Below are positions 1 to 62,788 of a DNA stretch of 64,000 nucleotides, in pieces; the first letter of the stretch is position 1; each line of letters opens with the position of its first letter. The notes under the pieces are model-generated. The model was not told the origin of the DNA, made no database searches, and saw nothing but the letters and a program-made list of their open reading frames with translations. The position numbers and the translations under genes are program-made. The stretch spans positions 1 to 64,000 of the forward strand of contig CP142734.1 in the NCBI GenBank assembly GCA_036630325.1. Direction: 5' to 3'. This stretch comes from Vairimorpha necatrix (taxonomy: Eukaryota).

Positions 1-2572
1 ACCTACCTACCTACCTACCTACCTACCTACCTAACCTACCTACCTACCTACCTAACCTACCTAACCTACCTACCTAACCTAACCTACCTACCTACCTAAC
101 CTACCTAACCTACCTAACCTACCTACCTACCTACCTAACCTAACCTAACCTACCTACCTACCTACCTACCTAACCTACCTAACCTAACCTAACCTACCTA
201 ACCTACCTAACCTACCTACCTAACCTACCTAACCTACCTAACCTAACCTACCTAACCTACCTAACCTACCTAACCTAACCTACCTAACCTAACCTACCTA
301 CCTACCTAACCTACCTAACCTACCTAACCTAACCTAACCTAACCTACCTAACCTAACCTACCTACCTAACCTACCTAACCTACCTAACCTACCTACCTAA
401 CCTACCTAACCTAACCTACCTAACCTAACCTACCTAACCTACCTACCTAACCTACCTACCTAACCTACCTAACCTACCTACCTACCTACCTACCTACCTA
501 ACCTAACCTACCTAACCTAACCTACCTAACCTAACCTAACCTACCTAACCTAACCTACCTACCTACCTACCTAACCTACCTAACCTACCTAACCTACCTA
601 ACCTAACCTAACCTACCTACCACCTACCTACCTAACCTACCTAACCTACCTACCTACCTAACCTACCTACCTAACCTACCTAACCTACCTACCTAACCTA
701 CCTAACCTACCTAACCTAACCTAACCTAACCTAACCTACCTACCTAACCTACCTAACCTACCTAACCTACCTACCTAACCTAACCTACCTAACCTAACCT
801 AACCTAACCTACCTACCTAACCTACCTACCTACCTAACCTACCTACCTAACCTAACCTAACCTAACCTACCTAACCTAACCTACCTAACCTACCTAACCT
901 AACCTAACCTACCTACCTAACCTACCTAACCTACCTACCTAACCTACCTAACCTAACCTAACCTAACCTAACCTAACCTACCTAACCTAACCTACCTAAC
1001 CTACCTAACCTAACCTACCTAACCTACCTAACCTAACCTAACCTACTACCTAACCTATAACCTACCTACCTAACCTACCTACCTACCTAACCTAACCTAC
1101 TACCTAACCTACCTAACCTACCTAACCTACCACCTACCTAACCTACTACCTACCTACCTACCTAACCTAACCTACCTACCTAACCTACCTAACCTAACCT
1201 ACCTAACCTACCTAACCTACCTAACCTACCTAACCTAACCTAACCTACCTAACCTACCTAACCTAACCACCTACCTAACCTACCTAACCTACCTAACCTA
1301 AACCCTAACCTACCTACCTACCTAACCTACCTACCTAACCTACCTAACCTACCTACCTAACCTAACCTAACCTACTAACCTACCTAAACCTACCTAACCT
1401 ACCTACCTAACCTACCTACCTACCTACCTAACCTACCTACCTAACCTACCTAACCTACTAACCTAAACCTACTAACCTACCCTACCTACCTACCTACCTA
1501 ACCTAACCTACCTAACCTACCTAACTACCTACCTAACCTAAACACCTACCTAACCTAACCTAACCTAACCTACCTACCTAACCTACCTAACCTACCTACC
1601 TAACCTACCTACCTAAACCTAACCTCTAACCTACCTAACCTACCTACCTACCATACCTACCTAACCTACTACCTAACCTAACCTAACCTAACCTACCTAA
1701 ACCTAAACCTACCTAACCTACTAACTAACCTACCTAACCTACCTACCTACCTAACCTACCTACCTAACCTAACCTACTACCTAACCTAACCTAACCTACT
1801 AACCTACTACCTACCCTACCTACCCTACCTACCCTACCTAACCACCTAACCTACCTACCCTACCTACCTACCTACCCCACCCTACCCTACCTACCTACCC
1901 TACCTAACCTAACCTAAACCACCACCACCTACCTACCTACCCTACCTAACCACCACCTAACCCTACCTAACCCTACCTAACCTACCCACCTACCCTACCC
2001 TACCTACCACCCTACCTAACCTACCTACCTAACCTAACCTAACCTACCTACCCTACCCTACCTAACCTACCTACCTACCCTACCTAACCTACCTACCCTA
2101 CCTACCTAACCCTACCTAACCCTACCTACCCTACCTAACCTAACCTAACCTACCTAACCTAACCTAACCTAACCTACCTACCTAACCTACCTAACCTAAC
2201 CTAACCTAACCTACCCTACCTAACCTACCTAACCACCTACCTAACCTAACCACCTACCTACCTAACCTACCTACCTACCTACCTAACCTACCTAACCTAA
2301 CCTACCTAACCACCTACCTAACCTAACCACCTACCTACCTAACCTACCTACCTACCTACCTAACCTACCTAACCTAACCTACCTAACCTACCTACCTAAC
2401 CTACCTACCTAACCTACCTACCTAACCTACCTACCCCACCCTACCTACCTAACCACCTACCTAACCTACCTACCTAACCTACCTACCCCACCCTACCTAC
2501 CTAACCACCTACCTACCCTAACCACCACACCCCCCACCCACCTACCTACCTAACCTACCTAACCTACCTAAC
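1..2572 (-). repeat. Telomeric array of mixed TAGG/TTAGG units (CCTA/CCTAA on the + strand)
   Basis: The C-rich strand runs from base 1 as irregular CCTA and CCTAA units. Variant units (CCCTA, CCA, CTA, CCTAAA) accumulate after ~1040. Abrupt junction at ...cctaa|cacgtcagc. Confidence 0.97.
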
Positions 2573-2799: not shown

Positions 2800-5150
2800 T
2801 TACAAGCTTCTAATTTATCATTTTTATAATCTTTTAGGTCATAATGTCGTTTCTTAAGGTATTTTCAGCTATCAGTCCTTACAATATAAAAATCATTCTC
2901 ACACTTTCCCATCATTTTACCAACACTTGTAAAACTTCCTTTCATACATTTCATCTGTTTACCCAAGTTTTTTATCTTGCGATTCTCACAGCCTGATCTA
3001 CTTCAAATTTTATCTCTTTCCTTTGTTTAAAATTACTTGCATACACACCCTTTTTAACGTTTTCAATAAAGACTTCTTTTCCTTGTTCTTTACATGCTTC
3101 CATTGGTGTACATTTTATCGCTGTGTGTAAAATGTTATAATAGGTTCTTAGCTTGTTCTAGTTTTTACTCTGGGTTTCCTTCTTTTTATTTAATCAATGA
3201 TTCCCTTATTGTTCAAATACATCGTTCAATTTTCCATTGCTCTTATGAGCTTCTAAACCTACTTTCCATTGCATAATTCCGTTTTCTTTACACCAAGTTA
3301 CAAACTTCTCACTGAGAAATTTCTTACCGTTATCCGAAATATTCATCTGGGCATCCATCTTCATTTATCAAATATCCTAAAATTTTCGTATTAACATCAC
3401 TTCCTCTATTTTCCATTTTTGCGCCCTATACTTTTCTTCTAAGTAGTCAATCCCTAATAGCAGGTATTTTTTGTTTTCCTCGATAACAATTACGTGTAAA
3501 GCTACTTTTTCTAATTTCTTAAATATAGTTACAAAATTGCAACCTCCAGTCGTTTTTCTGTTATTAATGCACTATATTCCACAATTTTTTAGCGTTGTGG
3601 ATATCTGGTCAAATAGCTGGTCAGTACAATCTTTGTTTTTCCTTATAATAAGGTCTTTTTCACTTCACGATGATTTAATTCCTCATGAACTCTGCGAATT
3701 TCTGTTCTCATTTATTTTTTTGTGTTGTATTTAATAATTTCTATTGTTGAGAACTTCCAATAGTTTTTGCCTTCTCTTTTAACCATGCGCTTTTTTTCTT
3801 TCCATTTAATTTGTTTTTGGTGCGTTTATCTCTTTCGCCTTTTCAATTACTTCGTTATTTTTAAATTGTCTACTAAGAGCATCCACATACATCATCAATT
3901 CTGTTTTTACATATTCAATAGTAAAATCGAACTCTTGTATATATTCTATCCATCTCTTAATTATGTAATTATTAAAAAACGGTTTGTTTCTAATCTCGGC
4001 CATTCCTTTATGATTTGTCATTTATTGAAATTTTCTTCCCCCAAATCTGACTCGAATTTCTTTATTTCAAATAACACTGCCAACATCTCTTTTTCACTAA
4101 TCGTATACTTTTTAGCTGTTGGTGTTAGCATTTTTGATGCCCATTGTATCAGAATCTACCTATCTTCCTTGTCTTCTTGCAGAAGTATAACTCCAATTCC
4201 CTTATCGCATGCACACGTTCTTACTCTAAATATTTTTTTATCTATCTTCTATTTTTAATTTTTTCACATCCTTTAAATCCTCTTTGATATCCATAAAAGC
4301 TCTTTCCATATCTTGGGACCATTTTCATTTACTATCTTTTTTTAGTGCTCTTGTAAGAAGCGCTGACCGATAAGCATAATGATGAATAAAATCTCTTAAC
4401 CGGCCTGCCCGCTCCTCAACTCTTCTAAGATCTTTTATGTTGTTAGGCTTTCTGTATTCTAATGTCTACTCCTATATATTTTTTCGGTTTAATGTCTTCT
4501 CAGTTAATTGTTACTCCAAGTAGTTTTTCTTCTCCTAATTTATATTGTATCTTTCTTGAGTTTACTTTTAATCCACATTCATTAAATTTTCGAATTACTT
4601 GTTTTAAAAAATTTTCTTGTATATTACTATCTCATGCATAAATAATAAAATCCATGTACACCTCAACACTCTTGCCTCTAAACTTATCTAAAACTCCGTT
4701 CATCACTCTTTGCATAATATGGGGAGCATTTTTTAATCCCTTTACCATGCCATTCCATTCGTAAACTCTACCATTTATCTTAAAAGCTGTCTTATGTTTG
4801 TAAGCTCTCTCAATTTCTATATGATAGAATCTTTCCTTTAGGTCTATAACCATAAATACTTTAGAACCTTGCGTTGCTTTAATATGTCTCTAATCAATGG
4901 CAAATCATACGGATCTTTTTATTCCAGTTCATTATAAGCCATCAAATTGCTTCTCAATTGTACTTTACCATTTGGTTTTTCTATGGGCTTTATTAGGCTT
5001 TTCCATTTGCTCTTTGTCTTTCTGATAATACCTCTACTTTCTAATAAATTAATATACTTTTCTGCCTTTTCTCGGAGTTTATAAGGAATATTTTGTTTCT
5101 TTTGCACTACTTTTACTCATTGTTTTGTTTTAAAAGAACATTTTATCCCT
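2800..5150 (-). pseudogene. pol remnant (RT, RNase H, integrase), frameshifted
   Basis: IPYKLRE..LLESRGIIRKTKSKWKS; IDLKERFYHI..KTAF..YEWNGMVKGLKNAP..VYMD (RT); KYTISEKEMLAV and RWIEYIQEFDFTIEY..DALSR (RNase H); YLLLGIDY, SDNGKKF, HKSNGKIER (integrase). Confidence 0.9.
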
Positions 5151-11800: not shown

Positions 11801-12207
11801 GACGAATCTTGTTTATAATTATACAATGATTATTGGTACTGTCAAACGTCTAAGAGTATTGTAAATAAACATTAGACATGTTTGACATTCACAAACTAAA
11901 AGTAAGACAAGTGCATGTCACATGAAGTACTACTAATTCAGTAGAACTTCGGTTTCATGTTTGTTTGATTACATCTCAAAGAGTTTGACAGTTAATCTGA
12001 TTGACTATTTAAACGGAATTTACCCCTGACCTACAATTCCGATGAGCAGCAAAACAAACAAATAATATAAATCAATATGTAAATTTAGACTCATCACTTC
12101 AACTTCGGATCAGGCTTCATGCCGGATATAAGATGTGTAGATACTCCCTAAAGAAAAAAAAATTATTAATTTGTCATATATTTATTTCTTGTTTTTATGT
12201 TTAATTC

Positions 12208-14180
12208 TTAGGTATTACCCGGGAGTTGGCCATTCCTCAGATAGCATTCTATAATGCTTCTCCCGGGTATTAAAGTTTTATTATAATGCAAGTTGTATTA
12301 TTAAATCTGCCTCCTTGGGCTTTATCTTTCCTCTTCTAAGGATGCATTGATTGATACTGCTTATTTCTAGACTCCTCTGTTCTTATTGACATATTTTGGT
12401 GGGGGTAAAAATAAAAAGAAAATATTTATAGAAAAATAAATTCTAAAAATTCATTTGGAGGGAAAATATAATAATGTGGCAAATAATACCACATACTACC
12501 TCCTGCAAAAAATCAGCAAATTAGAATACGGATTCCTCCGAAATCATCAAATAGTTCTTTTCGCCGTTTCTAAGAAATAGCTGGGTTGGATATTCTAAAC
12601 CTCGAATCAAGGTATGAGTTTAACTTATCACATTTGAGCTTCTCAGATTCGCCCTTTACTCCATATCTACATATGCTAAATTGCATCTGCTGCATTTTAT
12701 TTTTGAGGCAATGTTTTCTGAAAGTTCCAAGATTTTTTTTTTATTCTGATAACTATCATATTTAGATGTTGCCAAATCTTTTACCTGTTGATGGTTATCT
12801 TTAATTTTATCAGGAGGCTTGCTTCTTCCTTTGTTATTTATTTTAATATTTTTGAATATATATCATCTGATGGTATCGTATTCCCTGTCCTTTTCACAAA
12901 GTCAACTATATTAGTTAAGACTTTAGCTAGAAGATTGTCTATTTTTTATTCAAATTCCTTTTAATACAATTATCTATATTATTTATTCTTTCATTTATAC
13001 ATTTCTGTTTATTGATGATTTTATTTTCTTTTTGTTTCTGAATTAATAGGCAGTCGGTTTTTTTATTTTTTTATCCAATTCATCGTTAGGAATTTTTTTT
13101 ATCATTAACGATTTTCCTTCTTTTTTTATTTCTCTATCGTTGGCTTTTGGTTTTTGTAGACGACAATCTCGTGTATCATGTGATCTTGCTCGATGTATAG
13201 AGCACCACTTATCACTTTTAAAGTATCTTCCTGTTTCTTCAGGTCTTTCATAATTCTCTTTCTTAGATATAAATTGAGATAAAGTCTCCCTTCCAGTTTC
13301 ACCTGTAAAATAATCATTTCTTCCAGATCCTGTGAATATTTTAATAGCTCGTCCATTACCTTGTTTTTCATTCCTGATTTTAAAACTTCAATGGCAGTTG
13401 ATCTGCCTAATCCTTTTTCAAAAATCTGTTTCAATCTAACATCAGATTCCTTTTTCGATAGGTTTATAGATAGTCCGTATATTTTAATCATCGACTTTAT
13501 TTTCTCGAAGTAATCTGCTATACTTCTATAATTTACCTGTTTTACAGTTTCCATCTCTGTTAATAATAAAGCTACATCATTTTTTGGATATCTGAATTCT
13601 AGTAGTTCTTTTTTTTGTTTTTTAAAGCTTTTCTTATTTAGCTTATCTTTCACCTTAGAATCTTCAATCAAAGAATGGTAGATGAGTCCCATCTGCTCAT
13701 TTGTCCATTTATTGGCCGTTCCTAGCTCTTCAAACAGCTCGAGATGATTTATGGTGCAGTCACGTTTTACATTTTTCAATTTTTTCTTTAAACACTATTG
13801 TAGTTCCTTCTATGGTTTTATCAAATGTGGTATATGCTTCATCATCATTTTATTTCTCAGTATTATTACTTTTTTCTAATACTAATGAGCTCATTGAGGT
13901 ATTACCCGGGAGTTGGCCGTTCCTCAGATAGCATTCTATAATGCTTCTGACGGGTATTAAAGTTTTATTATAATTAAAGTTGTATTATTAAATCTGCCTC
14001 CTTGGGCTTTATCTTCCCTTTTCTGGGGATGCAGTGATTGATACTGCTGATTTCTAGACTCCTCTGTTCTTCTTGACATATTTTGGTGGGGGTAAAAATA
14101 AAAAGAAAATATTTATATAAAAATAAATTCTAGAAAATTCATTTGGAGGAAAATATAATAATGTGGTAAATAATACCACA
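12208..14180 (-). mobile_element. Internally deleted LTR retrotransposon with 286-bp LTRs
   Basis: Near-identical direct repeats at 12208-12493 and 13895-14180 (TGAGGTATTA...TAATACCACA; the left copy starts TTAGG), TSD AATTC on both sides, gag-like ORF inside, no recognisable pol. Confidence 0.93.
13126..13779 (-). pseudogene. Gag (capsid-like) ORF remnant
   Basis: Retrotransposon gag-like pattern (ANKWTNEQ..; VKQVNYRSIADYFEKIK; IFEKGLG), located between two LTRs. Confidence 0.75.
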
Positions 14181-14359
14181 AATTCATATTTAATATGGAA
14201 AAATATAGTTTATTCCAGAAAATAACATAATAAATACCATTGTTATAATATATATAAATAATCTTTATAAATATATAAAACATAATTATTATTATTATTC
14301 TAATAAAAATGAATTAATACGGGATATGCTAATGGTGTTTTATATTCTAGTATATTCTT

Positions 14360-14589: not shown

Positions 14590-15560
14590 TAAAATAAAAG
14601 ATTTATTGAGTTAATTTTCAATTATGTTTAGATATTCATAGCACAGCTTTCCCCGGTATCGCTCATGGGATTCAGCTCTTCACAGACTTTGGTTTCTGTG
14701 GAATTATTAATGTTTTCCAACTTCACTTTAGCAGCTTCATTCCCCTTTGCCGACACCACTTCTTTAACAGTCGCCATATTCGCTAGTGCGCTTACAGCTC
14801 TAGCCACTTCTTCTTCTCCTGCATCCTCCTGATCGTATCCTCGTCGTCGTTCCAAAGAGATGGACTCTAGAGTCTTCTTCATCACAATAGACTGGATATA
14901 TGCTTCCAGGTAGGGTTGGATTTCTAGCTCCCTGATGTACTTTCTGTGATATTTGGTCACCACTCCATCCCATGTCATTACATAAGGAACTATTCTTGTC
15001 CGGGATTTATGTATTAGTCCCAGTTCATTTGCAAGAAGGTCATATTTTCTTAGTTTTTCATTCTCAACTATAGTAAGTCGATCCTGGTTGGTTATACCAA
15101 CTTCAACTATTAAAATTTCTTTCTTCTTCTTGTCAAACACAAGAATATCAGGCTTATTATGGGTTACCTTTATATTAGTGGATATTCTCGTATCTACTCT
15201 TATTTCTGCACGATCATTTTCCATGATCTCTTGTACTGAGTGTCCACGTATTTTCTTTGTCTTCTTAAACCCATATTTAATACATAGTAAGAGATGAATG
15301 CATCTAACTACCTCGTTGTGTCTTTTCATATAATCAAAACCCAACATTCGATCACACTTGGTAGCTAAATGATCCACGGTCTTCCTATGAGATCCACAAT
15401 GGGGACATTGTCCCTCTTGTCCACAGAAGATGAGTGGGCACACTAGTGTGTTCTGGCCCCTGTTCTTTCTCTTCTGTGTCTACTTTGTCTATGTTTGCTA
15501 TAGAGGTTTGTTTTGTAATTTTTTCGGTTTCTTCCTCCTGCTCTGTCCTTACCCTCATTT
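14590..15560 (-). mobile_element. Non-LTR retrotransposon remnant with restriction-like endonuclease (R2/R4/NeSL-type), RT absent
   Basis: ORF 14628-15443: CPHC..TVDHLATKC (CCHC), RHNEVV, KPDILV..IVEVGIT..KLRKY (PD-(D/E)xK). The 3' UTR is shared with the copy at 23712. Confidence 0.92.
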
Positions 15561-15967
15561 TTTCAAATATATATATATATATCTTTTTATTATACTCTAT
15601 AAGTTATCTTATTTAAATTTTTAATATATCATTTTTGTTTAATCATAATATATTTAAAATATTTTTTTTAAATATTTTCCTTAAATGAAGATAATTTCAG
15701 ATCCCAAAATATATAAATTAAATATTACAAAAAGATTAGGTTCATTAAATATAATAGACAAGATTAATATGAACCTTACATCGATAAAAAATACTAGAAT
15801 TCTACAAGGCTTGATCTGATGATTTATCCTTCATTTAGTATTTATTGTAATATAATCCGTTGTTTTAATTATCTTAATAAAAAAAAATCAAAATTCATTA
15901 CCGACAACCAAATTACTACTCACCTTCTTTTACATGGCCAACATGTTTTTTCTAAATATATTTTTTT

Positions 15968-17113
15968 GGTACATGACCGTTTGGAACCCGCTTTGGGAAA
16001 ATGAACCCGCATTGAAAAATTAAAGGACCCCCCCCTTTCAAAAAATGGCAAGATTGACAAAAACAAATTTTGTTATAGAAGATGAGCTTTTAAGTGATGA
16101 AATGTTTTTAAACATGGAAATAAATGAAAATTTTATTTTGGAAACATTTTATGATGCTGAGACAGCGTGTATGTTTCTGGCACGCAGTTCATTAATACAA
16201 AACAACTTTTTTTGTACTGTATGCAGCTCTGAAAGGCCAATGAAATTGATTAGAAGAATAAGATTATTAGACAAATATGTTTGGAATTCACGAAACCTTG
16301 TACTACTTCTAAATCTGTCAGAAAAGACTCTATTTTTGAAAATACCAAATTAAGTTTTTATAAAATTATAAGAATGATATATAAGTATATCAAAAGAGTT
16401 TCCTTTCTCGATATAGCAAATGATCTTGAGCTAGACAGAAAAACCGTAAGTACATATGGTATGCTCTGCAGAGATCGCATAATCGAGGAAGTGACCAATA
16501 ATAGCCAGAGGTTAGGAGGTCGTGATGAGTTAGGCATTCCTAAAGTAGTGGAGATCGACGAGAGTCTATTCTTTCGTGCCAAATATAATCGTGGCAATCA
16601 TACCACAGGTCAGTGGTATGTAGGAGGAGTTGAAAGAGGTTCTAGAAAGGCCTTTCTCGTCCCTGTAGCTAGTAGAAATATTGCTACGCTTCTTAAGTTA
16701 ATACAAGATAATGTATTGCCTGGTTATATTGTGATCACTGATCAATGGAGAGCATATGGTGCTGCATTTAGACAAATCACAGGGATGGAGCATAGGACTG
16801 TCAATCACTCTATCAATTTTGTAAATCCTAACGATCCCGAGACACTTACTCAACAAATTGAAGGATTTTGGTCTCTTTCGAAGAGAGATATTCGGTCTAT
16901 ACATGGAATAAACCAGGACGAGCACTATGAGTATCTTTTACAGTTTCTATGGTCTTATCAAATAGCAAAAAACCAAAGAATTAATCGACTTCTTTCATTA
17001 TTCAAAATAAATCGTTAAGTCTCTTTTTTTATAATTTTTTTTATTTTTCCCTTTTTTTGAATTTTTCAATGCGGGTTCATTTTCCCAAAGCGGGTGACAA
17101 ACGGTCATGTACC
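15968..17113 (+). mobile_element. Full-length Merlin (IS1016-like) DNA transposon
   Basis: ~55-bp TIRs GGTACATGACCGTTTG..ACCCGCTTTGGGAAAATGAACCCGCATTGAAAAATT, 8-bp TSD ATTTTTTT, DDE transposase. Confidence 0.96.
16045..17018 (+). CDS. Merlin DDE transposase split by one frameshift near 16285
   Basis: N-terminal CTVC zinc motif (16045-16353) joins a frame with VVEIDES..KYNRG, GGVERGS, ITDQWRAY, VNHSINFV, TQQIEGFWS. A C-run precedes the ATG. Confidence 0.9.
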
Positions 17114-17141
17114 ATTTTTTTATACTAAATCTAGATTTTTA

Positions 17142-23711: not shown

Positions 23712-24040
23712 ATAAAAGATTTATTGAGTTAATTTATCATTAAAGTTAGATTAGCACAGTTTACTTTGGTATCGCTCACTAGATTCGGCTCTTCATAGAC
23801 TTTGGTTTCTGTGGAATTATTTATGTTTTTCAACTCCAAATTTTTAGCTTCATTCTCCTATACCGACATCACTTGTTCAACATTCTTCATATATGCAATT
23901 GCGCTTAAAGCTCTAGTTACTTCTTTCTCTCCTGCATAATCTTTATCGTATCTTGTTCGTCGTTCCAAAGAGATGGACTCTGGAGTTTTCTTCATCACAT
24001 TAGACTGAATGTATGCTTCCAGAAATGTTTAGATTTCTGC
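23712..24040 (-). mobile_element. 5'-truncated decayed copy of the RLE non-LTR element at 14590
   Basis: Colinear with 14596-14930 (TAAAAGATTTATTGAGTTAATTT; AGACTTTGGTTTCTGTGGAATTATT; CGTCGTTCCAAAGAGATGGACTCT). Confidence 0.9.
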
Positions 24041-35120: not shown

Positions 35121-36907
35121 TTAAAGGAGATATTAAATATATATATAAATTATATTTTTAAAACAAGAAAATATAATTTAAGTATTTTTATAACCGCGAT
35201 AATAAGAAAAATTATCTGATTTTTCCTTTTCTCGTTTAAAATTTTTTTCATACAGTTAAAAAGCTAATGTTGTTTGTTAATTATGTGTTGTGTCAATATA
35301 TCATGTTTAAGCTAATTTAGATAGATAAAATATATAGTGTAGTGGAAAACTCAAAAATATTCATGCAATATTTATAAAAAAATTTTACCTCAGTACTATT
35401 ATTATAAATGATGCACCAAATTTTCTAATATCAATAGAAATATAAAAATTTATTAAATCATTTGTACAAGCGTGGTAGGTGTAATTTTAAAGTAACTAAA
35501 AAAGCCTTAAGCAAGTCTTAAGACAATACAAAAAAGTTATTCCGATGTAATGACAAGTTAAATATAGCAAAACAAACACGATATATATATATATTGATTC
35601 TATTTATCGTGGCATTTTTTTTAAATTCAATCAAAAACACAATAATATCTTTGTTTTAATGATTTAATTATTATGAAAACGAGTTATGACATGGGCTGTT
35701 TTCGTTAGTGTCGAAATTAGAGTTAACAATACTTATAAAGTTAACGAAAACATAGTATATTAGATTTTACTATATATATGACGTTCTTATAAACACTTTG
35801 ATTTTTATAATATAAACATGTTTTGAAATAAAGTAGCTTTAATATCATTTTTTTGTAATTACGGATTATACGCATTTATAATTCAATCTTTACTTTATAT
35901 GTTCATGATTGTGTTATATTAAATTTACTTGTGCATTACAATGGCTTTTTTGGTAGATTTGTTATGACCTTTATTTAAGTATAATTTTTTCTGTTTTAAT
36001 ACAAATACTAGGTCTTTTCTGTAAAAAATAACCTGCAAATAGTAATAGAGTCATAAAAGATTATGTACAATTTTTTATTTTAAAAATTTTATAAAATATT
36101 TGCTATCTCTGATATTTAAATAATTTAGCCTACACAAATATATAAATAGCCGTTTAAACCTATACTTCTTAATTGTATCTATATAAAGAATCAAATTTTA
36201 CATAAAAACATAATAGTAAAACAAATTTGGAGAAATCCTTGTGCAATATTATTGATATAATTTAAAAAAATCATTGTATTATTAACAAACTATTAAGTTA
36301 ACATAATTTTAAAAATTCGATCTATATATTTTTTCATTCTAAGAGGATCCTGAACGAATTTTTTAAATTACGGCTTTTTTATAATAAACTGTGGCTACAT
36401 AATGTTTGTTTTGTTGTATTAAAGGCAATTTACATTTTCATCAGATACTGTAACAACCAGTCCTTTCAATATGTACAGAGTTACAATTTATACAATTAAA
36501 ATTTTGTTTTCAAATTTGTTTAGAGCGATATAATAGTAAATACAGATTATATTATAAATACTATGTTAATTATAAATCAACTCACGTGACATGTCAATAT
36601 TTTTTTTCACATCTATGTCTAATACATTATATATTGTATTAATATTGCAATAAAACGCATGTATACTAATTCTTAAAGTTTATTTTTTTTAATCTTTACC
36701 CTTAATTCTAGTTAAATATAAGAAGAGAAATACAAGGCTTTGTGAAAATTAAAAAGAAATATGTAAATATATATGTTTAGAGTGTTCGATTTTATATAAC
36801 AGTAAAAATTTGATTATATAAAAACTTTTATTTTCTTACAAATGAAAATTTATTTTGACAGCACAATTGATATTTAGTAAAAATTTAATTAAAATCATTT
36901 GCAGTAG

Positions 36908-37194
36908 TGAGGTATTACCCGGGAGTTAGCCGTTCCTCAGATAGCATTCTATGATGCTTCTCCCGGGTATTAAAGTTTGGTTATAATTAATGTTGTATTT
37001 ATTTAATCTGCCTCCTTGATCATTGTCTTCCCTCTTCTGGGGATGCAGTGATTGATACTGCTGTTCTCTAGACTCCTCTGTTCTTCTCGACATATTTTTT
37101 GTGTGTTAAAAATAAAAAGAAAATATTTTTAAAAAATAAATTCTAGAAAATTCATTTGGAGGGAAAATATAATAATGTGGTAAATAATACCACA
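36908..37194 (-). mobile_element. Solo LTR of the 12208-14180 family
   Basis: TGAGGTATTA...TAATACCACA, 287 bp, TSD AGTAG on both sides. Confidence 0.95.
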
Positions 37195-39706
37195 AGTAGT
37201 ATCTTACTAAAGTCCAAAGTGCTTGAAAAATTTCCATAATTTTAGAATGTTGATATGTAAGAAAATAAAACGTAATTTATATGCTAAAATTCATATAATA
37301 TTTATAGGCATATAAAAATAAATATTTCTTTTTATCTTTAAATGATTTGTATTTTATAAAATATTTTACAGCTGAAATTTTTTCGTTTTAAATATAAAAA
37401 CGATTAGACATAATTATTTATTTTATATTTGTTTGTTTTTATTTTACTTTTCAAGCGTAAATATATTTTTCTAGTTTGAATTTAACATAAATAATTATAT
37501 ATTGTTAGAATAAAATTTAAAAGTAATAGACAAGATGTTTTTTGATACTTTAACTACAAGATTATCAATTTGGTTAATAAATGGTTATTTTATATAAATT
37601 TATACTGATGAAGGAATTTTTATGCATTCCATATCTATAATTATTATAATAGTCTTAAATGTTTTTTACACATTTCAGGATTTATACGCGAATTTCCATT
37701 TGTTTATTTATGGCAATAAATAAGAGCCCTTATAATATCGTGAGATCACACATAGAAATAAGTTAGAAAAATAGATTAATAATAGGAAAGTATATAATAA
37801 GTATTAAAATATTAAATAGGATTTTTACATAAATTTTAAATATATAAAGACCTTTTGTTTGCTTGTATGTGTGTTTAATGATCAAGCAATTAAGTTTTTC
37901 TAATATTTCGAAAGATTTTAACGTAAGACTAAGAATTTTTCGTAATCAATTAGATAAATTTATTAATGACCTATTAATTATAGAAATACTGAACTTACTC
38001 TGGTTAAGAATCTTGTATAGTTGTTTATAAAATATGCACAATTTTACAAATTTGTAATTTTATTAATAAAAAAATATATGGTAGAATATAAGAAAGAAAT
38101 AATATATATTTCGGCATATTTGTATTGACTTTGAGCATTTTTAAGTAAGTGTTATGATATATAATATATGCTTTTGAATTTTGATTACGAAAAAGTCCTG
38201 CTTAAATTAATCAATAGATAAATAATTATACACAACCAATATAAATTAGGGAGTATATTTATAAAAGACTACTCATAATGTAAAATATGTACTGGCATAA
38301 GGGTTGGTATGTATGATTGCTAAATTAAATTTTGATGATTAACAAAAGATATTTAAATTTGTTACAATACTATTTTTTCGAGACATTAGATCATTTATTT
38401 CTCAATATAGTAAAATATACTGTTAAAAGATTGTGCAATATGATATTTAAGCGTTTCATACTTTTGTAAGTATTGACGATCATTAAGATGAATAATTTCC
38501 TCTATAATTCAGATGTGCTTCATTAAATTATTGAATTAGTTTAAAAAAACATTTGTTTTGTTAATACAAATGCAAAAATAATGAACAGATTAAATAATTT
38601 AATAATAGTGAAATTATGAATATAAAAAAGTTCGTAAATTTTTATTTAAAATCGAACAAAGTGTTGTTTGCGATTTTAAATTTGGTAATTTTAATATCTC
38701 CTTCAGCAACTTAAAATATTGTATAATTGAAAAAATTTATCCTATCTATACACAATGAACTCTATGATTATCTACTAATATTTCAAAATATATTAAAAGC
38801 GTATAGATTATCATCGTTAAATCTTTTATTCACTTTGTATTATCTGCTAGGAAGATGGTACTCGAAATAGTATTTAGTGCATTGAATCCTCTTATTATAT
38901 GTAATAGTATTTTCATCTCTGTTATTAAATTTTTTACAAAACACATAATGGTAAGCGCAATCTATTAATTTTTTCTATTTAAGGATCGTTCTTATACATT
39001 AAAACTTCTATCATTTACATTTGCATTTTGCTTTTTAAAATCTTATAATTAAAATTTTTGACTTATAATATCGTTACACATTATATAATATAATTAAATG
39101 ATTCTACAAACAATTTATACGCATGTTAGATATTAGATTTACAACAAACTTAAGTGGTTAACAGCTTTATTGGTCGTATAGATGTTAATAAATCCATAAA
39201 ATTACGAAAGCAATTCATCTTTCCATATTACATAATTCTATAAATTTTTTTATGACTAATTATAATATAATCAGCTATATGTAATACGCTATTAATATTG
39301 ATTAAAATTAAATATTATATATCTGGAAATTACGAATGTACTAGAACCTAGGCTTTTAAAAATATTGTATGTACAAAAATTATTTAATTTGTAAGAAAGA
39401 AATTTTCGATTTCTAATTAATTTGACTTCGAAAAGTTTTGCACTAGAATTCATTAAGTGTTTCTATAATATAAGTGCATCACAACAAAAAAAATTTAATT
39501 AAAAAAAGTAAAGTCATATTTTGTTTAAGATACTTTTTTCTGATTAACTTATTTTATTAGCATTAATTAAAGATTTTATAAGCATCGATTAATAGCTATC
39601 ATTTTTTATTACCATATTAATATATACCATTTTAAAATATATTATATTTTTTTCTTTCCCTATTATTTAATCAAAGCAGTATGATCAATTTGTGTATAAT
39701 ATCATA

Positions 39707-43050: not shown

Positions 43051-45419
43051 TGTCACAGTTCGAAACGAACGCCCATTTTGAGCGGACGCCAGGGGGTTTA
43101 AAATTAAATAATCTCTTTAGTGAGGGGCGAACAAGAAAAAAAACAAATAAATGTTCGTCTTCAATGATTGCCCAAATTTTGTCTCGATTTTTTGAGGGGT
43201 AAATTTTTGCTATTTTTTTATAATAATGTAGGAATAATGAAAAAAGGAGAAAAATAAAATAAACAAAATTTTTAGTACTTATTCGTTACTAGCAACGTTA
43301 GACCTCTAGTACTTATTTCTTCTATTATAATGACATTATTATTTTTTCTGCATAATTTTACTTTATTAAATTGTATTATGTCTGTTTAAAATTAGACTTC
43401 TGCATCTAAATGTTCATAAAGAGAATGTCTTCTGGTATTGATGTTGTTGTAAAATAAGGTATTTTAAATTTTAGCTACCATTTTTGTTCTAGGAAATCAT
43501 TTCTTTACATACTTCAAGGTGTCATTCTATCTGCAGCAGTTTGTGTATGAATTCTAGCTGCATCATAAATAAATTTCATTTAAAAAGGTTTGTGTTATTC
43601 AGAGCATATAATTATTCTATTTCCAGTTTATAAAAAATCTAGAACATCTGATAAACTTTCTTCTGCTCGTTCTTCGTCCCAAATTCTTGTTCGTGATTTT
43701 CGATATAAATCGAATCAAGATATCTTGTAAAACTAGACTCGTCTGTAATGTTCTATATGTGTCTACTAAACATTATAAATAATGTAAGTGTCGCGTGGTG
43801 GAGTGTTGTAAATATTTATATGATCAGGTAACTAAATATCGTACCTTGGTTCGTTGAATCAAATTATTTCTGTCCCAAAAGTAGATCTATTCTATTTCAA
43901 TATTTTTTGATTGCATCGTTTTATCTGTCCTTGTATTCATGGACATCTAGATTTTCTCCCTCATGTGTCTTATTTTATATTTCTGTCGTAAATCGAAGAG
44001 AATTTGATTTACAATTCTCTGCCTTTATCAGTATGAAGTATAAAACAAGAACTAAATGTTCAAAAAATGTTTCGAAGGCATTTCTCCACTGTAATACCTG
44101 TTTTGTCAAGCAGTGACAGCGTCTAACAGTATTTGGTCTAGAATCAATATTCTATTGCCATTTATATCTTTCTTTGAGTTCGTGATACAGCCAAAGATCA
44201 ATCAAGTCTGCAACATATCTTTCCCTTGGGTATTTCTCCTACAATTGGTCTGATAACAAACTGTTTTTAGATTTCCTTTTGATTTACATATATCACAGCT
44301 GTTAAAAACTTTTAGAATATCTTTTTGGGTTGCGTCGTAGACTTTTGTTTGCAATGATGTAAACAATCTGTTCCATCCCACATGCCCGTTTGAGACGTAG
44401 ATCTATTTTAAAGCGTTACTCATTGGTTGTAAGAAAGTTTACGATCTATATAGACATACTTTAAATCTCACTGTAAGCTCCGTGATACCATTAATTACAT
44501 CCATGAAAAGGAACATTTTTTTTACTTTCTTCTAAAAGCATCTCTTTCACGTTTCTTCCCTTTCTTTTGTAACAGAACCAGTCTGTAAAAAGACAGTAAT
44601 TTTTTGTCTTTCATTGTTATTTAATTTTAGATACAAGGCCGAGAGGAACCCGCTTTGAAATTTTCAAGGACCCCCCTTTCAAAAAATTGCAAAATTGACA
44701 AAACAATGTTTGTGAGGCTGATGAACTTTTTAGTGATAAAATAAATAATCATGAAAACCAAACATAAAGTATTTTGGAAACATTTGATGCTGAATCGGCG
44801 TGCGCCTTGCTCGTTTCTGTAACTAGTAGAAATACTGCTATTTCTTTGAGGTACTACAAGATACTGTAAAACCTGTTTCTATTTTGTTTTCTAATCAATA
44901 GTAGGATATGAGGTCACATTAAACAAGCAAAGGGGGGAGAGCAATAGTACAATGAATCACTTTATCAATTCTGTAACCCCTAGCGATTCTACGACTTAAT
45001 ACCAAGTAATTAAGTTGGTTTGGGCTTATTTCTGTAATGAATGTTCGATCTATACATAGAATAATTTAGGATGAACACTGTGAGCACCTTTTACAGTTCC
45101 TCTTGGCTTTCTAAATTTATAAAAAACAATAGATAAATCGTCCTCTTCCATATTTAAAATAAATCGTTAAGTCTTTTTTTTTATATTTTTTCTTATTTTT
45201 TTGAATTTTTCAAAGCGGGTTCCAAACGGTCATGTACCAAATTTTATTTCATGCGCTTAAATTGATGAATTTTTATTACAAAGAAATGCCAACGTTTTTT
45301 TTTGGTTTTTACCCTTCACAAGTAATCATTCTCCCTATCGTACGCTCAGAACGGAATTTTTTTTTCTTAACTTTTATCCAACCCGGGGCTTTTCCCTGAC
45401 GTTCGTACTAACGATGTCA
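43051..45419 (-). mobile_element. Decayed Ginger-like (rve integrase) element with a nested Merlin copy
   Basis: Minus strand at ~43900-44240: PRERYVADLIDL..Y....RYKW, ILHTDKGRE, SRCP*IQGQIKRCNQ. Degenerate inverted ends TGTCACAGTTCGAAACGAACG / CGTTCGTACTAACGATGTCA. No RT seen. Ends uncertain. Confidence 0.65.
44646..45238 (+). mobile_element. Internally deleted, decayed Merlin copy (family of 15968)
   Basis: GAACCCGCTTTGAAA..GGACCCCCCTTTCAAAAA 5' end, decayed transposase pieces, right TIR GCGGGTTCCAAACGGTCATGTACC. Confidence 0.88.
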
Positions 45420-46222: not shown

Positions 46223-48387
46223 TTAATGTTTTTTCAATTCGTCCATTATTTCATTAAATAATTTTAAGTTATCATTTACAATTCCAAAAACTTCACTTTC
46301 GTTCAACATATTTTTTATATTTTGAAAAAATCCTTTTCTTTTTGATTTTTCAGATTCATCATCAATGAACTCACTTTTCAGCAGGTTCATTATCGATGGA
46401 TATAAAAATTCTTTTCTATACAATCTTATATATTCAGGAGTATATTTCTTTAGGCTTAATATGAATTTATCTATTAATATATTTCTATACTCGTTAATTA
46501 TTTCTATATTTATATTCATGCGTAATAGAACCGATTTACATTCACTAAAAGTATTATTTATTTCAATTCTGCCTTTATTTTCAATTATTTTTTTTTCTGA
46601 TTCATATCGATTCGTTTGTTTGTATCTTTCCATAATTTCTAAATGTAAATTATTCAACTTTTCTTCGATATTAGTTTTTGATATTATTTCTTTTAAAATT
46701 TGTATTTTTTCAAATTTCATTGTGCTTTCAATATTTTTTTCTTTAATTCTTTTTCGTATATTTTCATTTTTTTTTAAAATATAATTTTTATCTAATTTGA
46801 ATTTAGTAATAACGTCATCTTGGCTCATCTTAGTAAACTCTAGCATATATGCATCAGGTATGTCAAAAGTGTATAATCCTGTAAATAATATCGCTATTTG
46901 ACAGATATCTTTCAACACCTCCTGCTGGCTATTCAAAAACAACTCTTTATGTATAGCTGAAATTTGTCTAAAAACTTCAATTAAATCAATATGTTTGATT
47001 CTATCTTTTTCGTTTTTTTCTGCTAAAATATTAATCCCGATGTCTTTTATTATTATAAAAAATTTATCTTCGACTGAATTAGTTTCGTTTAAATATGTTT
47101 CTGCTTCCAATAGCAAACAAAAGGTAACTAAATATAAATAATCGTCAAACAAGTTACTTTTCAAATCTAAAGTTATTTTTTTTGATAGTTCAAATAAATT
47201 AGTTTCAACATATTCTTTATCTTTAATTACTTTTTTATATATATGGACATCAATTGTCTTTTTATACAACAATAAATGACTAAAAGTGATATTTATTGCT
47301 GATCCCGAACTAAGCAATATTCTTTGAATTAAAAAATTCAAATTTTCATTATTAAATAATAATTTGTAAAAAAACCAAATTCCGTCATCAATGCTTTTTC
47401 TGGATAAGGCAGAAAAGATAATTTGGATTTTTCTGTAGCAATCCGTGCTTATGTAAACATTGTCAGATACAAAGCCTCTATAATGCTCTAAAAAGAAATA
47501 ATATCTCTTGTCGTCGATATCAAAAGTTACATACATTGTTCCAATCTTTATTTCAAAACAGTATCCATGTTTATTCAAATTAATATTATTTATTGTACAG
47601 TTCAATTCTTTTTTATGATATCTTAGATAATTATAGATGATATCGTGATGGTATAAATTGTAGATATCAAGAAGTTTTTTTGCAAATAATATCTATAAAA
47701 TTTTTGAATGTCAATTTCTGCTAAAACTAAGTGATAAAAATCATCAACACAAAATTCCATTACATGACAAATGTTTTCAATGTCAATTCTCAATACAATA
47801 TTGTAACTCTCTGTAAAAGAGTCTGCGTAATGATAAATATAAGGCTGAAGCTTTTTATAATAACTTTTACTGCTTTCATTGTAAATTCGAAAATAATAAT
47901 TCGTATTCTCATTTTCTACACTATATATTTTTTTATAGTGTATCTTAAAAAAAGAGTTATTTGCCATTCTTTCGTTGTTTGCTTTTTTTAGTTTGTACAC
48001 AAACTTCGATATAATGTGATGGTTTTCACGGCGACAAGGAGAGCATAAAAGCACTATTGAATAATGCTTGGGCGCATTTAATATTTTTTCTATTTCTTCT
48101 TCCATTTCAATTATGATATCTTCTGTTGGTTTATTTTTTGTGTCAAGAACAAATTCGCCCAAATTTTGATCGTAAAATGTTTCAACTGTACAAGTTAACT
48201 TCCCAAACCCAGCAGTCGATCTACAAAAGTCCGCCAAGATAGTTATATTGTTTTCTGGATTTAAAGGATTGTATGATATAAAATTACCTTTTTCTATATC
48301 TTTTATAAAACTTTCATATATTTTTTCGTATAGAGGATGGCTAGTTTGTGCCGACAAACACATAAGTAATACTATAGAGATTTTCAT
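46223..48387 (-). CDS. Signal-peptide protein of a subtelomeric family (~720 aa), split by a frameshift in an A7 run
   Basis: MKISIVLLMCLSAQTS hydrophobic leader, CCCATT before the ATG. Adding one A at 47675-47681 fuses ORFs 47623-48387 and 46223-47605. Motifs are colinear with 59429-61660. Confidence 0.85.
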
Positions 48388-50416: not shown

Positions 50417-51638
50417 TTATTCCTTTCTATATATTTGATCTATTAATTCATGGATTTTTATGCATTCATTTGTCCTCAAAGATACTCTATGTAATTTTCT
50501 TAATAATGAATTTATAATTGTAAGTACTTCTAAATGTTTTGTAATATCCTCATATTTACTATGTTTCAATTCTTCTTCCACGTCTTGAAAAGTTTTTATT
50601 ATTGGTATATAATTAAATAATAACAATACCTCTTTATTATAATTATTTGTTGAAATTATGTTGTATGCTGAGTATATCTTATTACTGCCATATTTTCTCC
50701 TCAAATCAAAAAGTGTCATAAAATCTTAAATATACTTACAACTTGTGTAATTAAATTATAAGTTTCTTTTATATAAACATAAATTTTCTATTTTTTCAAA
50801 AGTTTTGACGAATTCTTTTTTAGTTTGAAGTTTTATATATTGTGAAAAAATATAAATCTTTTTATTGCACTCTTTAAGGATTTCGTTTGATTCTTCGTCT
50901 AAATTTATAAAGTACTTAATTTTTTTCATCCTATTTATTCTGAATTTAAACTCATTCATACTTTTTTGACAATTAGTCAAGAGTTTGGAGGAATTATAAA
51001 AAGGAAGTGTGGTGTTTCCACCAGGGAGATGGCCATAATGTAAATAGCATTCAAGAATGCTTCTCCCTGCACCTAAATTAGTTTTATTTAAATTATGTTT
51101 ATTAACTTGCCCCTGTGGGCTTTCATAGTTCCTCATGTGAGGGGGTAGGGTGTAAGATACCCTCCCGTTATCGTTGTAGACTCTCTGTTCTCTTCTCATC
51201 TAAAAATCGATGGGTCAAAATAAAAGAAAATATTTATAGCAAAATATTTTCTAGAAAATTCACTTGGAGGGAAAATGAAATAAAAATAAGTAATGTGGTA
51301 AATAATACCACAGGAAGTTTCTTGTTTTGATTTACGAAGTTATTTTCTAAAATAGCATTTTCAAGTTTATCCAAGGCCTTCTGCGCATCTAATTCTATTG
51401 AGTCAATTTCAATAAACTTATTAAAATCTTTATCATTGATATACATTTCCATTTCTTGTTTTAAGTTATAGGTTTCAATATCCTCAAATATATTTTTATT
51501 GATTACATTATAAACATCTTCTTCGTAACTCTCAGCTTTCCCAAAATTTTCAGTTATATCTCTTTGACAATTAAGAGTTTCTATACATTTATTAATATTT
51601 AATGAGGAACAAAAAATAATTGTAAAAATTAAAAACAT
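50417..51638 (-). pseudogene. Secreted-type hypothetical gene interrupted by a solo LTR
   Basis: CCCTTA-ATG start (MFLIFTIIFCSS). Removing 51008-51312 plus one TSD restores NKKLP|FYNSSK in frame. A further break lies near 50720-50760, so ORF 50417-50719 may be its C-terminus. Confidence 0.75.
51008..51312 (-). mobile_element. Solo LTR of a diverged subfamily of the 286-bp LTR
   Basis: TGTGGTG...TAATGTGGTAAATAATACCACA, 305 bp, TSD GGAAG. Shares CTAGAAAATTCA.TTGGAGGGAAAAT with the other LTRs. Confidence 0.92.
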
Positions 51639-62715: not shown

Positions 62716-62788
62716 GCTGCCCTTAGCCCAGTGGTAGAAGGCAATGCTTCCATTGAGCAACGGCTGGGTTCGATTCCCAGGGGCACCA
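62716..62788 (+). tRNA. tRNA-like sequence, isotype uncertain (pseudogene or element-borne)
   Basis: A box TAGCCCAGTGG, perfect T arm CTGGG-TTCGATT-CCCAG, acceptor GCTGCCC/GGGCACC with one mismatch, non-canonical anticodon arm TGCT-TCCATTG-AGCA. Confidence 0.65.

Follow-up and report, generated by a model that had tools for sequence, protein, structure and literature searches.

The window analysed here comprises the first 64,000 nucleotides of contig CP142734.1 of Vairimorpha necatrix (assembly GCA_036630325.1), and it carries a decayed retrotransposon with two long terminal repeats (LTRs) at 12208-14180 on the minus strand, together with two solo LTRs. Judged from sequence comparison, this element very probably represents a microsporidian Ty3/gypsy-type family whose 5' LTR contains the translation start of Gag. 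A compact U3 promoter, with a TATA-like box and a microsporidian CCC motif, would occupy the initial ~100 nt of the LTR. Transcription would begin a few nucleotides before an ATG at LTR position 102, so that the mRNA would have almost no leader, and the other ~185 nt of the LTR (R and U5) would encode the first ~62 residues of Gag, namely, a variable basic/polar tail and then the conserved S-I-[IL]-E-x-[YF]-[LF]-x-x-G-x-L-P. The frame would cross the LTR terminus and any primer-binding site and pass through a linker (..EAYTTFDKTIEGTTIVFKEKIEK..) into the gag core and a CHHC zinc knuckle; in intact relatives it would go on to protease, reverse transcriptase (RT), RNase H, and integrase as a single polyprotein. 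The LTR end, which is the integrase recognition site, and the primer-binding region would lie inside coding sequence, as in Ty1, and the same codons would be borne untranslated by the 3' LTR and by each solo LTR.

The boundaries of the LTRs were observed directly. Perfect 5-bp target-site duplications (aattc, agtag, and ggaag) were found at all three insertions, and the LTR ends could be fixed because these three independent insertions have exact duplications flanking TG..CA repeats. Direct terminal repeats and a target-site duplication identify 12208-14180 as an LTR retrotransposon. Both LTRs of this two-LTR element open with TGTGGTATTATT, while the 5' LTR closes with GGTAATACCTCA and the 3' LTR with ..CTAA; the TG..CA termini are present in three of the four LTR copies, the exception being the 3' LTR with its final AA. 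The 5' LTR is 94.4% identical to the 3' LTR, 91.0% to the solo LTR of the same family, and 70% to a diverged solo LTR of a related family. A palindrome at the LTR start, TGTGGTA-N5/6-TACCACA, is invariant across the four copies in the window (14162-14180, 12475-12493, 37176-37194, and 51294-51312), and the LTR 3' end repeats TACC(T/A)CA.

In all four LTR copies, an ATG ~100-114 nt into the LTR opens a frame leading to the LTR terminus. The original prediction had described this frame in the same-family solo LTR, and its coordinates proved exact and its peptide matched letter for letter: the ATG at 37093 (LTR position 102) opens 62 codons that run to the final LTR base, interrupted by one TAA at codon 56 (36928-36926), for which the alignment gives CAA in both LTRs of the two-LTR element. 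The peptide had also been said to persist in the diverged LTR at 51008, and the frame there indeed extends from the ATG at 51199 (position 114) over 64 stop-free codons to the LTR terminus in the same codon phase. In the case of the two-LTR element, a 1-nt deletion common to both LTRs (~13986 and ~12299) splits the ATG-proximal from the distal frame. As had been claimed, the distal frame of the 5' LTR (..GQLPGNTS, directly followed by MSSLV..) passes straight into the internal ATGAGCTCA in spite of decay, and the decay is more extensive than had been noted. The coding share amounts to 185-186 of 286-287 nt (65%), or 192 of 305 nt (63%) in the diverged LTR; the earlier estimate that about two thirds of the LTR is Gag-coding agrees with these values and is supported by the homology to Gag N-termini described below. 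When the diverged LTR was subjected to dinucleotide shuffling, an ATG frame of at least 64 codons to the 3' end was obtained in the same phase in 11 of 5000 shuffles and in any phase in 35 of 5000.

The gag core (13794->13129, 222 codons) was used as a phmmer query against 1.84 billion representative proteins, and 54 relatives were obtained at E<=1e-3, 18 of them at E<=1e-10, with a best value of 6e-29. The 10 best-placed relatives include proteins of Nosema granulosis, Vairimorpha necatrix, V. apis, Dictyocoela muelleri, and Edhazardia aedis, as well as unnamed records and one labelled as a Clostridium metagenome-assembled genome (MAG). Pfam assigned no family to the gag open reading frame (ORF). 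By sequence, the gag is homologous to microsporidian members of Ty3/gypsy (Metaviridae). Within a single ORF, the relative P0022 (1254 aa) combines protease, RT, RNase H, and integrase, arranged in the Ty3/gypsy order (RT at 536-692 and integrase at 946-1117, according to Pfam); this order was read in P0022 only, as the window copy has no pol. Membership in Ty1/copia (Pseudoviridae) was considered and rejected, the integrase of P0022 not being placed before its RT.

Residue 5 of the gag core query aligns at residue ~70-86 of the relatives, whereas the window copy has 33 codons from the LTR end to the core. Therefore, an N-terminus like that of the relatives must reach into the LTR. The N-terminal motif of the relatives is approximately [SN]-[ILV]-[ILV]-E-x-[YF]-[LF]-x-x-G-x-[LV]-P-x(4-5)-L-[NS]-S, and the last ~20 codons of the LTR encode this motif (SIIECYLRNGQLPGNTS, or SILECYLHYGHLPGGNTT in the diverged copy); the Gag-Pol proteins that match it come from Nosema, Vairimorpha, Dictyocoela, and Edhazardia. 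A motif profile was built from 19 of 59 collected relatives, selected with a pattern that was written after the motif had been seen, and contained no window sequence. On comparing it with 2724 six-frame stop-to-stop pieces, the four LTR copies took the top four places (E 1.7e-5, 3.8e-5, 5.8e-5, and 3.9e-3), followed by a piece at 0.021.

Homology also extends across the LTR boundary. A 74-residue reading of 13984->13763, with TAA written as X and the boundary between residues 30 and 31, was compared by BLASTP with P0001, a Gag-Pol fragment of Nosema granulosis; one segment was aligned (14-73 with 16-75) at 39% identity, with an E value of 6e-9 for that single comparison. Similarly, tblastn with P0022, P0001, and P0019 gave one segment each, from 13948/13945 to 13766, across the boundary. 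In alignment A2, the motif, the linker, and the core stand within one predicted protein in 9 of 10 relatives. These comparisons support homology of the LTR-encoded frame to the N-terminal end of Gag(-Pol) and, on that basis, its continuity with the gag core. The L-[NS]-S conserved among the relatives coincides with the LTR terminus or adjoins it (NTS before and MSS after it in the window copy), possibly owing to a constraint on the terminal bases.

A promoter-like context precedes the ATG. In microsporidia, a CCC-like motif and very short 5' untranslated regions (<7 nt) are documented in the available part of PMC2803860. In the 5' and 3' LTRs, CCCCC stands at LTR positions 89-93, 13 to 9 nt before the ATG, so the CCC-like motif lies within ~15 nt of the ATG as at microsporidian gene starts; TATA(T/A)AATA is found ~40 nt upstream and ACCCCCACC 7-14 nt upstream. 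TATAAATA also occurs in the diverged LTR, where a CCC stands 16-18 nt before the ATG. Among the long host ORFs in the window, two of three have CCC <=10 nt from the ATG, and the one starting at 48387 also has TATAAATA ~30 nt upstream. From the TATA-like box and the CCC start context, we infer a transcription start immediately upstream of the LTR ATG; U3 would comprise ~90-100 nt, and R and U5 would be entirely coding.

A similar upstream region was found in the DNA of a relative. The scan of genome contigs returned a single short contig, L001, of 2801 bp, which belongs to another organism and encodes P0004. The sequence TGTGGTATAACACTACCACA precedes the gag ATG of L001 by 86 nt and is comparable to the LTR start TGTGGTATTATTTACCACA of the window, and the LTR-start palindrome at 1282-1301 has the same arms as in the window (TGTGGTA..TACCACA). 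Moreover, CCCC is present 10-13 nt before the gag ATG, a hairpin of the window LTRs is shared, and TGG stands 4 nt after the corresponding TCA; no 3' LTR was found within the contig. L001 is filed under a Clostridium MAG, yet it has a microsporidian-type gag and an LTR-like upstream region, and it is most likely a eukaryotic contamination of the Clostridium bin. A metagenome scan with the gag alignment A4 gave 41 pattern matches, none of which was confirmed, and a scan with the Gag-Pol alignment A7 gave 55 loci, none with a window-type gag or the N-terminal motif; only L001 has both. Viral contigs scanned with A4 and P0022 yielded no match.

Several points weigh against a Gag start inside the LTR. 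None of the window copies has an unbroken frame from the LTR ATG into gag, and the sole gag-bearing copy lacks pol and has a frameshift in both LTRs, a TAA at 13852-13850, and two further frameshifts. Among the protein relatives, none that is close extends over the boundary: the best phmmer match is only 38% identical, and when the 74-residue query was compared with longer proteins, none of 32 candidates reached E<=0.01. The N-termini of the relatives are those of computer-predicted proteins. The CCC motif is lost in the solo LTR at 36908-37194, and the extension of the reading beyond the window is drawn from homology only. The original prediction had proposed codon-position bias in the LTR segment as a check, and with the copies at hand the bias is marginal: over 60 codons, the solo and diverged LTRs differ at 26, 18, and 35 sites in positions 1, 2, and 3, for which our own chi-square test gives p ~0.06-0.08. 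The proportions of nonsynonymous and synonymous differences are 0.37 (pN) and 0.72 (pS), to be read with the protein-guided pairwise alignment, which biases nonsynonymous divergence downward, and with saturated synonymous divergence. In the last 21 codons, where the alignment is unambiguous, the differences are 7, 2, and 10 by codon position. Between the families, the LTR part before the ATG is 83% identical and the part from the ATG to the end 55-59%, while the frame and the motif persist. Together, these values point marginally to purifying selection on a protein encoded by the LTR. In addition, the motif codons S-I-x-E-C coincide with a hairpin, AGCATT-N4-AATGCT, that is identical in all five sequences (the three main copies, the diverged LTR, and L001), and part of the motif conservation could accordingly be structural and not coding.

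This hairpin also speaks for another explanation, in which the LTR frame is untranslated, the segment near the LTR end is a cis-acting element (U5 hairpin, integrase end, or neighbourhood of the primer site), translation of Gag begins no earlier than the first internal ATG (13894), and gene predictors over-extended the ORFs of the relatives. In the outer stem, CCCGGGAG/CTCCCGGG, a single compensatory change from C-G to A-U distinguishes the diverged LTR, an ATG stands immediately past the LTR in both the window copy and L001, and the marginal codon-position bias also fits. However, the hairpin cannot explain the motif in most relatives because their residues differ (ELY, EIY, and EYY, as in LLELYLK, ILEIYFK, and VVEYYLR) and the motif is kept at the amino-acid level all the same. 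In other relatives, L, K, I, or N stands opposite the internal Met, the frame is open upstream of the motif to an ATG with gene-start context in two families, shuffles seldom yield such a frame, and the 70-86 residues before the core of the relatives exceed the 33 internal codons. We consider this explanation unlikely. The hairpin itself may be a real U5 structure, and it may constrain the same bases in addition to coding, not in its place.

An ORF that starts in the LTR might also remain separate from Gag. In the window copy, the reading frame changes between the LTR and the gag core and a TAA intervenes, as would be expected if the LTR promoter expressed a leader peptide of ~62 residues from an upstream ORF that is unfused to Gag in active elements. 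The segment EAYTTFDKTIEGT..KEKIEK nevertheless aligns with contiguous proteins of the relatives, the breaks are single-site decay, and the arrangement of motif, linker, and core in one predicted protein (A2) speaks for fusion, which makes a separate leader peptide very improbable. That the open frame is a chance feature of decayed repeats is very unlikely: three of four LTR copies are interrupted and AT-rich DNA gives variable ORF lengths, but the shuffling result, the ranking of the four LTRs above all other pieces, and the BLASTP alignment over the boundary all oppose it. A Gag start inside the LTR is accordingly the explanation that we prefer.

The element at 12208-14180 has no pol and is a dead derivative. 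Table 1 summarizes its features together with those of the solo LTRs. The frameshifts of its internal region lie near 13772 and between 13303 and 13213, and no tblastn match to pol was found in the element beyond 13055. Because both LTRs share one frameshift, the copy was probably already defective at insertion, its movement depending on proteins provided in trans; alternatively, the two LTRs may have undergone gene conversion. In the zinc knuckle KWCSIHRARSHDTRDC, H replaces the second C, and this CHHC form is kept in the family. The Gag knuckle of the family reads C-X2-H-X4/5-H-X4-C (KWCxxHxxxxHxTxxC), not the usual CCHC.

A 12-nt palindrome, AATGAGCTCATT, spans the boundary between the LTR and the internal region and opens the first internal segment. 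No primer-binding site of the TGG type was present in the first 20 nt past the 5' LTR of this decayed copy, where the palindrome stands. No match was obtained between this region and tRNA 3' ends; half-tRNA priming and self-priming were also considered, and no convincing complementarity was found for either. The sole tRNA match beside the 5' LTR covers 7 nt and corresponds to the anticodon region of a tRNA-Met-like gene at 62716-62788.

Table 1. Features of the two-LTR element and of the solo LTRs in the 64-kb window.
Feature	Position	Strand	Remarks
Decayed two-LTR element	12208-14180	-	pol-less, 286-bp LTRs, 5-bp target duplication
5' LTR	13895..14180 (14180->13895)	-	286 bp, TGTGG..ACCTCA; direct repeat of 12208-12493
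Non-coding first 101 nt of LTR, U3-like	14080..14180	-	palindrome TGTGGTA-N5-TACCACA; TATA-like box at position 62
ATG, putative start of Gag	14077..14079	-	LTR position 102; first in-frame ATG after a stop
Distal LTR coding frame YNFNYNKTLIPVRSIIECYLRNGQLPGNTS	13895..13984	-	holds Gag N-terminal motif; ends at last LTR base
Internal part	13894->12494	-	between both LTRs
First internal segment (MSSLVLEKSNNTEK, stop, NDDEAYTTFDKTIEGTTIVFKEKIEK..)	13763..13894	-	same frame as LTR; in-frame TAA 13852-13850
Gag core	13129..13794	-	222 codons open; frame differs from LTR frame; frameshift near 13772
Zinc-knuckle-like KWCSIHRARSHDTRDC (C-X2-H-X4-H-X4-C)	13163..13210	-	third frame
Remaining internal region	12494..13054	-	without similarity to protease, RT, or integrase (tblastn)
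Candidate polypurine tract GCAGGAGGTAGTA	12494-12506	-	purine-rich, short, adjoins 3' LTR
3' LTR	12208..12493 (12493->12208)	-	286 bp, ends ..ACCTAA; last two bases AA, not CA
Target-site duplication aattc	12203-12207 and 14181-14185	.	5 bp, read directly
Same-family solo LTR	36908..37194	-	287 bp; duplication agtag 36903-36907 and 37195-37199
Diverged solo LTR, related family	51008..51312	-	305 bp; duplication ggaag 51003-51007 and 51313-51317

The original prediction had called the start of gag in the LTR atypical. It is unusual, but not without precedent: according to the available parts of the two sources, the primer-binding site of Ty1 lies within the GAG ORF, Gag starting in the LTR (PMC4974528), and the first candidate ATGs of Candida albicans Tca5 lie deep inside the LTR (PMC4139406). 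With Ty1 and Ty2 of Saccharomyces cerevisiae (Pseudoviridae) the window element would share the Gag start in the LTR, whereas by homology it belongs to another superfamily. In Ty1, ~12 codons of the ~334-bp LTR are coding, compared with ~62 codons and ~65% of the LTR in the window family. Ty1 also has a TGG-type primer-binding site for tRNA-iMet, and none was recognised in the decayed window copy. Accessory genes that overlap the U3 region of retroviral LTRs are a different matter: sag of mouse mammary tumour virus and nef of the human and simian immunodeficiency viruses are located in the U3 of the 3' LTR and are expressed from spliced or internal transcripts, whereas the window frame would encode structural Gag from the 5' LTR. 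In the case of Tca5, a Ty5-like yeast element of the Ty1/copia type, the start site is left open, and no conserved LTR-encoded Gag motif is described in the available part of PMC4139406.

A single Gag-Pol polyprotein is typical of microsporidian gypsy elements, as the available part of PMC4202319 states. The microsporidian Ty3/gypsy elements (three groups in Parisot et al. 2014, and Nbr of Nosema bombycis) come from the same host phylum and have this single polyprotein, and their gag cores are 24-41% identical to the window gag (alignments A3 and A4); the available part of PMC4202319 is silent on where the ORF starts relative to the LTR. Because the closest protein is only 38% identical, the window element is an undescribed family within microsporidian Ty3/gypsy when set against the proteins found, the original description of Nbr aside. 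The literature search returned no account of an LTR-encoded Gag start in microsporidian or other Ty3/gypsy elements; the original paper on the N. bombycis element and the supplements of PMC4202319 were outside its scope. Such a start is apparently new for microsporidia, a prior description being possible, and the new points would be its extent (~62 of ~95 LTR codon positions, 65%) and the Ty3/gypsy microsporidian setting.

If Gag starts in the LTR, a 286-bp repeat would combine a promoter, R/U5 signals, integrase ends, and ~62 capsid codons, which would represent an extreme compaction of the LTR and would fit the gene compaction and the near-absent 5' untranslated regions of microsporidia. The LTR sequence would evolve under coding and cis-acting constraints together. 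Annotation would be affected as well: programs for LTR detection or gene calling that mask LTRs will truncate the N-termini of Gag-Pol, and assemblies broken at LTRs give polyproteins recorded as partial; P0001 and P0019 are labelled partial by their source. Solo LTRs would also introduce a start codon with an open frame into adjacent genes. A stronger version of this idea, in which the whole of R-U5 is coding, the mRNA is near-leaderless, and each solo LTR serves as a promoter, a start codon, and an open N-terminal exon module of 62-64 codons that continues into any sequence downstream, appears rather doubtful to us; if true, solo LTRs might give rise to chimeric proteins in the compact genomes of microsporidia or provide truncated genes with a new start.

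The diverged solo LTR lies within an orphan host ORF on the minus strand (51710->50759), the upstream part of which has no homologues. When the LTR and one copy of the duplication were deleted in silico, a single frame was obtained across the empty site (..NQNKK followed by LPFYNSS..). The 64-codon ORF of this LTR is in frame with 83 downstream codons, giving a fusion ORF of 147 codons (51199->50759).

The G+C content is ~22% over most of the window. A telomere-like array occupies window positions 1-2570 (2.57 kb), with irregular ACCTA/ACCT units that read TTAGG/TAGG on the other strand and with no G on the forward strand. Since this array is telomere-like and the gag relatives are microsporidian, the window is subtelomeric microsporidian DNA. 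Only eight ORFs of at least 150 codons were found in the window under the standard code. The TAA/CAA difference in the LTRs prompted a trial of genetic codes 6 and 4, which were rejected: the real long ORFs are fine under the standard code, code 6 merely opens frames all over the AT-rich window, and the real genes are improved by neither code.

Other repeats were also observed. Broken RT and RNase H fragments of a gypsy-type pol lie at 3851-5089 on the minus strand, beside the telomeric array (tblastn with P0022, P0003, P0044, and P0019). A Merlin/IS1595-like DNA transposon at 15967-17114 has inverted ends of 58 bp that are 95% alike and a DDE ORF of 214 codons at 16374-17018 (Pfam DDE_Tnp_IS1595, E 8.7e-13); a second copy at 44646-45241 is 73-76% similar. 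A second pair of direct repeats, 14594-14925 and 23712-24038, is 81% identical over a distance of 9.1 kb and overlaps the end of a 239-codon ORF (15347->14628), to which Pfam assigned no family. Its sequence (..KPDILVFD..IVEVG..) is reminiscent of C-terminal nuclease-like parts of non-LTR retrotransposon proteins. In the case of 62716-62788, ARAGORN predicted a tRNA-Met (CAT), Rfam found no tRNA at its gathering score, and the acceptor stem pairs poorly; this sequence may be a degenerate tRNA or a tRNA-derived repeat.

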